Source: Escherichia coli (GTDB taxonomy: Bacteria > Pseudomonadota > Gammaproteobacteria > Enterobacterales > Enterobacteriaceae). Taken from it: 31,035 bases of DNA. A model generated the notes under the pieces. That model ran no database searches. It had not been told where the DNA came from and saw only the letters and a list, made by a program, of their open reading frames with translations. Within the stretch, counting starts at the first letter, position 1. Each line of letters begins with the position of its first letter. The DNA is taken from assembly GCF_003334255.1 (NCBI RefSeq), contig NZ_QOWU01000060.1. One strand, given 5' to 3'. Both the position numbers and the translations under genes were made by a program. Below, piece after piece: positions 429 through 535 of the stretch.

Positions 429-535
429 TACAATGCGGGCGAAAAATAAGGATGCCCCGTTAGGGGCGTTAGCTGAGTTTTTCGCGAAAAATTCAGCTAA
501 CGCTCTCTGTAATAGTCAAATCCAGGGGATTTACC

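Follow-up and report, generated by a model that had tools for sequence, protein, structure and literature searches.

A conserved, probable 5'-UTR stem-loop in the purHD leader of Escherichia coli and other Enterobacterales

Introduction

The purHD operon is a textbook PurR-regulated operon. In the 31,035-nt stretch of Escherichia coli DNA analyzed in the present study (the window), a 38-bp palindrome lies between the PurR box and the start codon of purH, which raises the question of what so symmetric a sequence does at this position. A first-pass annotation of the window proposed two answers: the palindrome may influence the stability or translation of the purHD message as RNA, or it may bind a dimeric regulator as DNA. 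These proposals were followed up by a computational analysis of the palindrome, its surroundings, and the leaders of purH in related bacteria.

Results

The rrnE-purHD junction and the purHD promoter

The window covers the divergent rrnE-purHD junction of E. coli. A 181-nt query around the palindrome matched 5420 of 5426 complete E. coli genomes with at least 95% identity and at one locus in each. Beneath this match, purH is annotated, and a 16S rRNA gene lies divergently upstream. The 59 nt that span the element (452-510) are identical in 5382 complete E. coli genomes. One divergent E. coli strain was inspected, in which the only change in the palindrome was C483T, in the center. The left edge of the window carries the rrnE leader boxA on the minus strand (54-67, the reverse complement of TTGTTAAAGAGCAG) and a promoter-like TTGACT-16-TAATAT, also on the minus strand (105-132), which is probably rrnE P2. 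These two elements confirm the divergent arrangement. The palindrome is away from the Fis region of rrn P1, as the first-pass annotation had stated.

The PurR operator of the purHD promoter, GCGCAAACGTTTTCGT, was found by a motif match at 413-428 (plus strand). A ChIP-chip study gave the purH-purD PurR motif as ACGAAAACGTTTGCGC, which matches GCGCAAACGTTTTCGT on the opposite strand, and reported that the region from -35 to -10 is a frequent site of PurR motifs (PMC3159470). In nearly all Enterobacterales loci, which were fetched with a PurH N-terminus query and, thus, blind to the hairpin, the operator stands directly 5' of TACAAT. All of the Enterobacterales loci fetched have (T/C)TACAAT next to the PurR box, and Pasteurellaceae have TATAAT at the same place. 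We regard TACAAT at 429-434 (plus strand) as the putative -10 hexamer. Because the PurR box and TACAAT are invariant, transcription would start near 441 and produce a 95-nt leader that holds the palindrome. On this sequence-based assignment, the palindrome would lie inside the purHD leader, with TACAAT 32 nt upstream and, as the first-pass annotation had described, downstream of the PurR box. An entry for purH was not found in the portions covered of the TSS supplement tables of two start-site mapping papers. The coding sequence at 536-2125 on the plus strand encodes 529 aa and carries the annotation purH in E. coli genomes. No leader peptide was found: the ORFs across the region begin upstream of the putative start or could not survive the length variation of the leader.

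A perfect consensus DnaA box, TTATCCACA, is present at 318-326 (plus strand), with the rrnE promoters on one side and the PurR box of purH on the other. Of 41 Enterobacterales sequences (the window and 40 loci), 38 have the exact 9-mer on the same strand upstream of purH, and one more has a version with one mismatch. This box is usually located approximately 40 bp upstream of the PurR box, and approximately 95 bp upstream in Escherichia and Citrobacter. Its conservation suggests a DnaA input to the transcription of purHD (or rrnE).

The palindrome and its predicted RNA fold

The plus strand at 466-503 reads GCGTTAGCTGAGTTTTT-CGCG-AAAAATTCAGCTAACGC (38 nt). A palindrome scan found 36 of the 38 positions to be self-complementary, and a repeat finder reported an overlapping inverted repeat at the same positions with 95% complementarity. 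The 5' arm (466-482) and the 3' arm (487-503) flank the center (483-486); as RNA of the plus strand, the arms would form the 17-bp stem of a hairpin, referred to as H2, with the center as its 4-nt loop. The single mismatch pair in the arms is G477/T492, which is G-U in plus-strand RNA and A-C in minus-strand RNA. The palindrome ends at 503, 33 nt 5' of the purH ATG (536-538). The first-pass description of a near-perfect palindrome with 17-nt arms and one wobble mismatch was, thus, accurate, as was the distance that it gave to purH.

The first-pass annotation had also considered the palindrome too long and too symmetric to be due to chance, and the present results agree. With one mismatch or fewer, its arm is 19 nt, and no palindrome in the 31-kb window is longer; the next-longest ones have arms of 13-14 nt and resemble terminator hairpins. 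When the window was shuffled 100 times with its dinucleotides preserved, the longest arms ranged from 10 to 15 nt. An analytic estimate put the chance of such a palindrome at approximately 2e-10 per center, or approximately 1e-3 per 4.6-Mb genome. The 38-mer folds as RNA with -22.5 kcal/mol, and the 120-nt leader fold has a z of -4.6 against shuffles. The tail that follows H2, UCUCUGUAAU, has U at only four of its first eight bases and a terminator scan made no plus-strand call; an intrinsic terminator was rejected as a candidate for E. coli on these grounds, in line with the first-pass view that the stem is not a terminator.

Elsewhere in the window, Rfam matches at the gathering level were obtained for a TPP riboswitch (11788-11888, plus strand), the sroH sRNA (17581-17741, plus strand), and the P26 family (27077-27138, minus strand). 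The palindromes at 17717-17742, 27076-27105, and 30882-30911 are terminator-hairpin-like; those at 17717-17742 and 27076-27105 overlap the matches to sroH and P26.

Other parts of the leader

A small G+C-rich hairpin, H1 (GCCCC-GUUA-GGGGC), lies at 454-467 on the plus strand and abuts or overlaps the base of the palindrome by 1-2 nt. It is present in the RNAalifold consensus of 18 Enterobacteriaceae leaders, in which it has two compensatory pairs, nine sense-strand G-U cells, and zero A-C cells. On the minus strand, H1 reads GCCCCTAACGGGGC, is followed by ATCCTTATTT, and appeared terminator-like in the scan. Minus-strand H1 could stop antisense transcription from entering the rrnE promoters; however, the G-U pairs of H1 on the plus strand in relatives favor a sense RNA over a minus-strand role. 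The heptamer AAGGAUG just 5' of H1 (448-454) resembles the CsrA SELEX motif.

The pyrimidine tract UCUCUGU is located directly 3' of H2 (504-510, plus strand), and its UCU is invariant in 32 species (columns 37-39 of alignment A3). The tract can pair through G-U/G-C/G-U with the GGG 5' of H2, or weakly with the Shine-Dalgarno sequence. Neither pairing received support from covariation in the 32-sequence alignment or from the duplex test. The minimum-free-energy fold also contains a small predicted hairpin of 6 bp, H3 (AAAUCC-AGG-GGAUUU, 518-532, plus strand), which holds part of the Shine-Dalgarno sequence AGGGGA (524-529). The sequence of H3 is kept only within Enterobacteriaceae, with no covariation.

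Conservation in Enterobacterales

A check of conservation across Enterobacteriaceae, which the first-pass annotation had proposed, was positive: the element is kept and its basal stem covaries. The same element occupies the same place in 36 of 47 Enterobacterales loci, which belong to Enterobacteriaceae, Erwiniaceae, Yersiniaceae, and Pectobacteriaceae. The conserved part comprises the outer ~14 nt of both arms, at the beginning of the 5' arm and at the end of the 3' arm (GCGUUAnCUGAnU / AnUCAnnUAACGC). Within it, the stem base GCGUUAnCUGA / UCAnnUAACGC is conserved and is flanked by GGG on the 5' side and by the invariant UCU on the 3' side. The top of the hairpin varies and grows, such that its total length ranges from 38 to 102 nt in 36 species. 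Escherichia and Citrobacter have hairpins of 38 nt, Cedecea and some Enterobacter have hairpins of 45-50 nt, and those of Yersinia, Serratia, Pantoea, Erwinia, Dickeya, and Rahnella measure 55-102 nt. Even close relatives differ freely in the four central bases (CGCG, TGCG, AGCC, ACGC, and CACC), and insertions at this point reach ~70 nt.

All 36 species fold a single long hairpin, with a mean z of -5.6 against shuffles. The paired fraction of cells in alignment A3 of the stem base, which holds 32 distinct Enterobacterales sequences, is 90.3%, versus 37-46% when the partners are slid. Changes on both sides are present in 8 of the 17 pairs (36 cells), and none of 500 shuffles reached these values. 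Compensatory examples are G-C/C-G/U-A at position 7, C-G/A-U at position 8, and positions 12-14. A mismatch at stem position 8 interrupts the helix in 18 of the 32 sequences.

Several leaders have features of their own. That of Yersinia thracica contains a 62-nt almost perfect palindrome that folds into a 28-bp perfect helix (-42 kcal/mol). The enlarged hairpin top of Yersiniaceae and Erwiniaceae carries a recurring polypyrimidine-AUAU-polypurine motif, such as CUUCUCUAUAUAGAGAAG, sometimes twice (loci L026, L029, L030, L035, L036, L037, L038, L028, and L031). The leader of Acerihabitans arboris (L040) is without the conserved stem base and has its own palindrome of a T-tract and an A-tract, GACTTTTTTCGAAAAAAGCC, which resembles the E. 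coli apex GTTTTTCGCGAAAAAT.

A covariance model built from the Enterobacterales stem base (R1) gave a single match per purH locus and no other match in the window. At the equivalent place, Photorhabdus has AUGUUAUUG...CAAUAACAU, which R1 did not reach; this is probably the same helix, in which both partners of the two outer pairs have changed. The element is missing from the purH leaders of Pasteurellaceae, Rosenbergiella, Budvicia, and Edwardsiella, which are short or of a different kind. The hairpin of E. coli is, as judged from these alignments, the short, Escherichia-type version of a hairpin kept in four families and probably in Photorhabdus.

Leader hairpins outside Enterobacterales

In Vibrio, Photobacterium, Grimontia, Aliivibrio, Ferrimonas, Oceanisphaera, and Zobellella, a long hairpin likewise precedes the ribosome-binding site of purH by 20-35 nt, with the sequence GGGUAUUUACCAAA...UUUGGCAAAUAUCUU and variants (loci L043, L049-L052, L055, L058-L060, L062-L066, L068, L072, L079, and L082). 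In these non-enterobacterial hairpins (UAUUUACCAAA...UUUGGCAAAUA and variants), C-G and G-C pairs flip between genera, and a UCUUU tract forms the bottom of the stem. Model R1 made no match on the leader hairpins of Vibrionaceae, Aeromonas, or Ferrimonas. The purine/pyrimidine register of the Vibrionaceae-type helix resembles that of the enterobacterial helix, and the two may be homologous or convergent.

Rfam returned no match to the element at the gathering threshold in the window or in 20 related loci, and none for the hairpins of Vibrionaceae, Ferrimonas, Oceanisphaera, and Zobellella that were scanned. In a permissive scan of 400-560 (E<=10), only chance matches to microRNA-hairpin models appeared. 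A full-text literature search for a structure in the purH leader, a stem-loop, or a structured UTR gave nothing relevant; the original purHD sequence papers of 1989-90 are outside the scope of that search. The element is, therefore, an uncatalogued conserved 5'-UTR stem-loop, in the sense that it is not in Rfam or in the literature searched.

Two known classes of sequence may be compared with it here. Like REP/BIME palindromes, the element is an intergenic imperfect palindrome in E. coli; however, it is single-copy, has a fixed orthologous position, and differs in sequence. A repeat family was ruled out because only one locus exists per E. coli genome and R1 matches once per purH locus. The ZTP (pfl) riboswitch, which lies upstream of purH in other bacteria, is likewise a conserved structured RNA in the purH leader. 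In contrast to this riboswitch, the element has no Rfam match and is a plain helix with a variable apex, without the conserved junction or loop nucleotides of an aptamer.

Discussion

RNA structure or DNA site

The first issue is whether the palindrome works as RNA or as DNA. At the DNA level, it may be the operator of a dimeric regulator, as the first-pass annotation had suggested, or it may extrude as a cruciform under the negative supercoiling behind the divergent rrnE promoters and block the transcription of purHD. Its near-perfect symmetry, its A/T-tract center, and its position directly downstream of the promoter fit such a role, and GCTGA...TCAGC in the palindrome resembles the half-sites of Cra, a LacI-family regulator. 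Similar to operators of the LacI/PurR family, it is a DNA palindrome near a PurR-controlled promoter. However, these operators keep their spacing and their center, and the purH element keeps neither: the half-sequences are spread over 38-102 nt in the 36 species and the center varies. Furthermore, its asymmetries are biased to one strand. The basal stems contain 27 G-U pairs versus 12 A-C pairs, and of the two strands, the sense strand gives the more stable fold in 27 of the 36 species, with a mean difference of -2.5 kcal/mol (Wilcoxon p ~0.001, for species that are not phylogenetically independent). The purH genes of Vibrionaceae and similar taxa also follow long leader hairpins and are not at a contig end next to rrn, which weakens the link to rrn supercoiling and indicates that a purH leader hairpin is not tied to an rRNA neighborhood. 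Since the spacing of the halves is not fixed, the center is not conserved, and the asymmetries are strand-biased, the palindrome is very probably a selected sense-strand RNA structure. Of the proposals in the first-pass annotation, the RNA stem is supported and the operator is not, and we consider any DNA-level role to be highly improbable. The effects on mRNA stability or translation that it suggested are plausible.

A possible structural module in the leader

The explanation that we favor, tentatively, is that H2 serves the purHD leader as a structural and stability module that acts in cis. The PurR-controlled promoter would transcribe a leader of ~95 nt that carries H2 (17 bp and a 4-nt loop, approximately -22 kcal/mol). 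Positioned between H1 and the ribosome-binding region, H2 would act in cis after transcription. This stable module may hinder the 5'-end-dependent attack or scanning of RNase E and may also keep the upstream leader from interfering with the purH ribosome-binding site. The outcome would be a comparatively long life of purHD mRNA. As a single function, such a module, i.e., an obstacle to RNase E combined with a fixed context for the ribosome-binding site, is the likeliest of those considered, although we regard it as doubtful when taken by itself.

Published half-lives bear on this explanation. In Supplementary Data 2 of PMC5694010, the half-life of purH mRNA in the wild type is 9.97 min and those of purK, purN, and purM are 5.5-6.5 min; this comparison is anecdotal, and the table is sorted by csrA effect. 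A half-life of 9.97 min is compatible with a protective leader structure, but is not specific to one. Regarding translation, the predicted accessibility of the Shine-Dalgarno sequence changed from 0.43 to 0.26-0.41 when H2 was deleted or one of its arms was mutated in silico. Because this change is small, an insulator effect on translation is not evident.

Among the closest parallels are 5' stabilizer hairpins of the ompA type and RNase E obstacles, which are also stable cis hairpins in the leaders of long-lived mRNAs and need neither a U-tract nor a conserved loop. The purH element differs from them. It is not at the extreme 5' end: if transcription starts at 441, ~12-13 unpaired nt precede H1 (454), a number that depends on this putative start. 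Work by Emory and Belasco is reported to show that a classical 5' stabilizer hairpin has to begin no more than a few nucleotides from the 5' end, and with the putative start, a 5'-terminal stabilizer of the ompA type was rejected for purH. Moreover, the sequence of the purH stem base is conserved more than its structure requires. The strong conservation of the stem base and the invariant UCU hint at recognition of the sequence itself, for which a purely structural role has no need.

Alternative functions

This excess of conservation makes recognition by a factor, or a conformational switch, the main rival of a structural module. H2 and its flanks may be the site of an RNA-binding protein or a small RNA, or may change conformation, and in this manner tune the translation of purH independently of PurR. 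The stem base GCGUUA/UAACGC with its flanks GGG and UCU is almost invariant over four families and the apex is free, as is typical of a helix that is recognized at its base. Some thermodynamic folds contain H1 and others an extended H2, and the possible alternative pairings are CCCC:GGGG of H1, the GGG:UCU extension of H2, and UCUCU with the Shine-Dalgarno sequence. RNAalifold pairs UCUC with GGGA of the ribosome-binding site, yet the UCUCU:Shine-Dalgarno duplex is no better than those of shuffled tracts (mean z = -0.1) and does not covary, and such anti-Shine-Dalgarno pairing was rejected. Pairing of CCCC with the Shine-Dalgarno sequence is unsupported because changes in the 5' arm of H1 are compensated by its 3' arm and not by the Shine-Dalgarno sequence, and the GGG:UCU pairs are uninformative because they never vary. 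We know of no partner of the purH leader hairpin. CsrA was considered since AAGGAUG and GGGGAU (525-530) are similar to its GGA sites and would be brought close by the hairpins; however, CLIP-seq gave no peak in purH, which is marked 'No' for this target set and for the three others compiled (PMC5694010 Supplementary Data 2), and a CsrA-bound leader was rejected. Overall, we consider recognition or switching unlikely, but worth keeping in mind.

The remaining explanations assign the stem to other machineries. The leaders of pnp, rnc, adhE, and proU are processed by RNase III, and purH resembles them in the long uninterrupted helix of its 5' leader, which is close to two turns. H2 may accordingly be an RNase III substrate, the cleavage of which starts the decay of purHD mRNA or remodels its translation. 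Its uninterrupted helix is 17-19 bp, or ~20-22 bp with the GGG:UCU extension, and relatives have longer perfect helices, with that of Y. thracica being the example. RNase III accommodates ~22 bp of dsRNA (PMC6212723), and the E. coli stem, at 17 bp plus the loop and up to ~20-22 bp only with the wobble extension, is borderline. The text of that paper does not mention purH. Moreover, the helix is broken by the position-8 mismatch in many relatives, a half-life of ~10 min does not suggest a destabilizing site, and in the part covered of an RNA-seq study, the only site listed in the purH-rrsE spacer is at 4207874 in the rrsE leader, not in the hairpin (PMC5371410). Cleavage by RNase III is, thus, improbable in our opinion. 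A leader attenuator, in which H2 would act as a pause hairpin or an intrinsic terminator and halt a fraction of the polymerases that transcribe purHD, is less probable still. It has in its favor the G+C-rich base of the stem and the U-rich tails of other genera (UCUUUUUAUU in Serratia, UCUUAUUUAUUU in Pantoea, and UCUUUAUU in Rahnella), and an H1 that is extended to AUGCCCC/GGGGCGU would claim 4 nt of the H2 base and may serve as an anti-terminator. However, the E. coli tail UCUCUGUA has, as described above, four U in eight bases and no plus-strand terminator call, no leader peptide or known sensor is present, and the 3'-end tables of PMC7815308, in the part covered, hold no purH entry, in which connection purH is repressed in rich medium. 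Because some other genera have U-rich tails, the element may have been an attenuator ancestrally.

The hairpin and the tract that follows may also form a nut-like module, i.e., a boxB-type hairpin and then a boxA, that recruits NusB/NusE (and SuhB) to purHD and ties it to the regulation of the neighboring rRNA operon. As in the nut signals of rrn and lambda, the hairpin is followed by a tract, which starts with CGCUCU in all species. The core of the rrn boxA, G(C/U)UCUUUA, is present in five species (Dickeya, Brenneria, Serratia oryzae, and two Rahnella), and four species of Pantoea/Erwinia have CGCUCUUA, which we take to be the lambda boxA. An exact 8-nt core of the rrn or lambda type is, thus, located 3' of the hairpin in about ten non-Escherichia species (L021, L022, L027, L037, and L038; L023, L025, L028, and L031), but not in E. 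coli. To our knowledge, the purH leader has no association with Nus factors. Nus factors have targets beyond rRNA, including suhB and a toxin gene of C. koseri (PMC5725501). Nevertheless, E. coli and all 17 close Enterobacteriaceae read GCUCUCUGUAA, which departs from the boxA consensus GYUCUUUAANA (PMC5725501) at positions 6, 8, and 9. Position 6 (T6C) is one of the two changed in the mutation that abolishes the function of the suhB boxA, and purH is not among the 407 putative boxA sites reported in the same study (PMC5725501). Furthermore, boxA is bound as a single strand, but pairing in the stem takes up two or three bases at the start of the motif, and in the leader hairpin of Vibrionaceae, the UCUUU tract is itself the bottom of the stem. 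A boxA in the purH leader of E. coli was rejected, with the consensus being matched or nearly matched only in some other genera, and we attach very little probability to a nut-like function.

Among these explanations, a structural and stability module remains the one that we prefer. RNase III-processed leaders differ from purH in that the purH helix is shorter than the ~22-bp span and is interrupted in many relatives.

Implications for purine biosynthesis

If H2 is a structural stabilizer only, it is an ordinary, though clean, conserved 5'-UTR hairpin. If it sets the lifetime or translation of the mRNA, it adds a post-transcriptional layer to the control of purine biosynthesis. We are aware of no ZTP riboswitch in enteric bacteria of the type that guards purH elsewhere. 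We speculate, as a long shot, that H1, H2, and UCU form a module that receives a hitherto undescribed, PurR-independent control of purHD in enterics, in which the base of the helix and its flanks are recognized; the input may be a protein or small RNA that senses ZMP or folate stress, or a boxA-like Nus input that couples purHD to the rRNA operon. If the hairpin is indeed recognized by a factor, it could explain how enteric bacteria adjust the ZMP-consuming step without a ZTP riboswitch.
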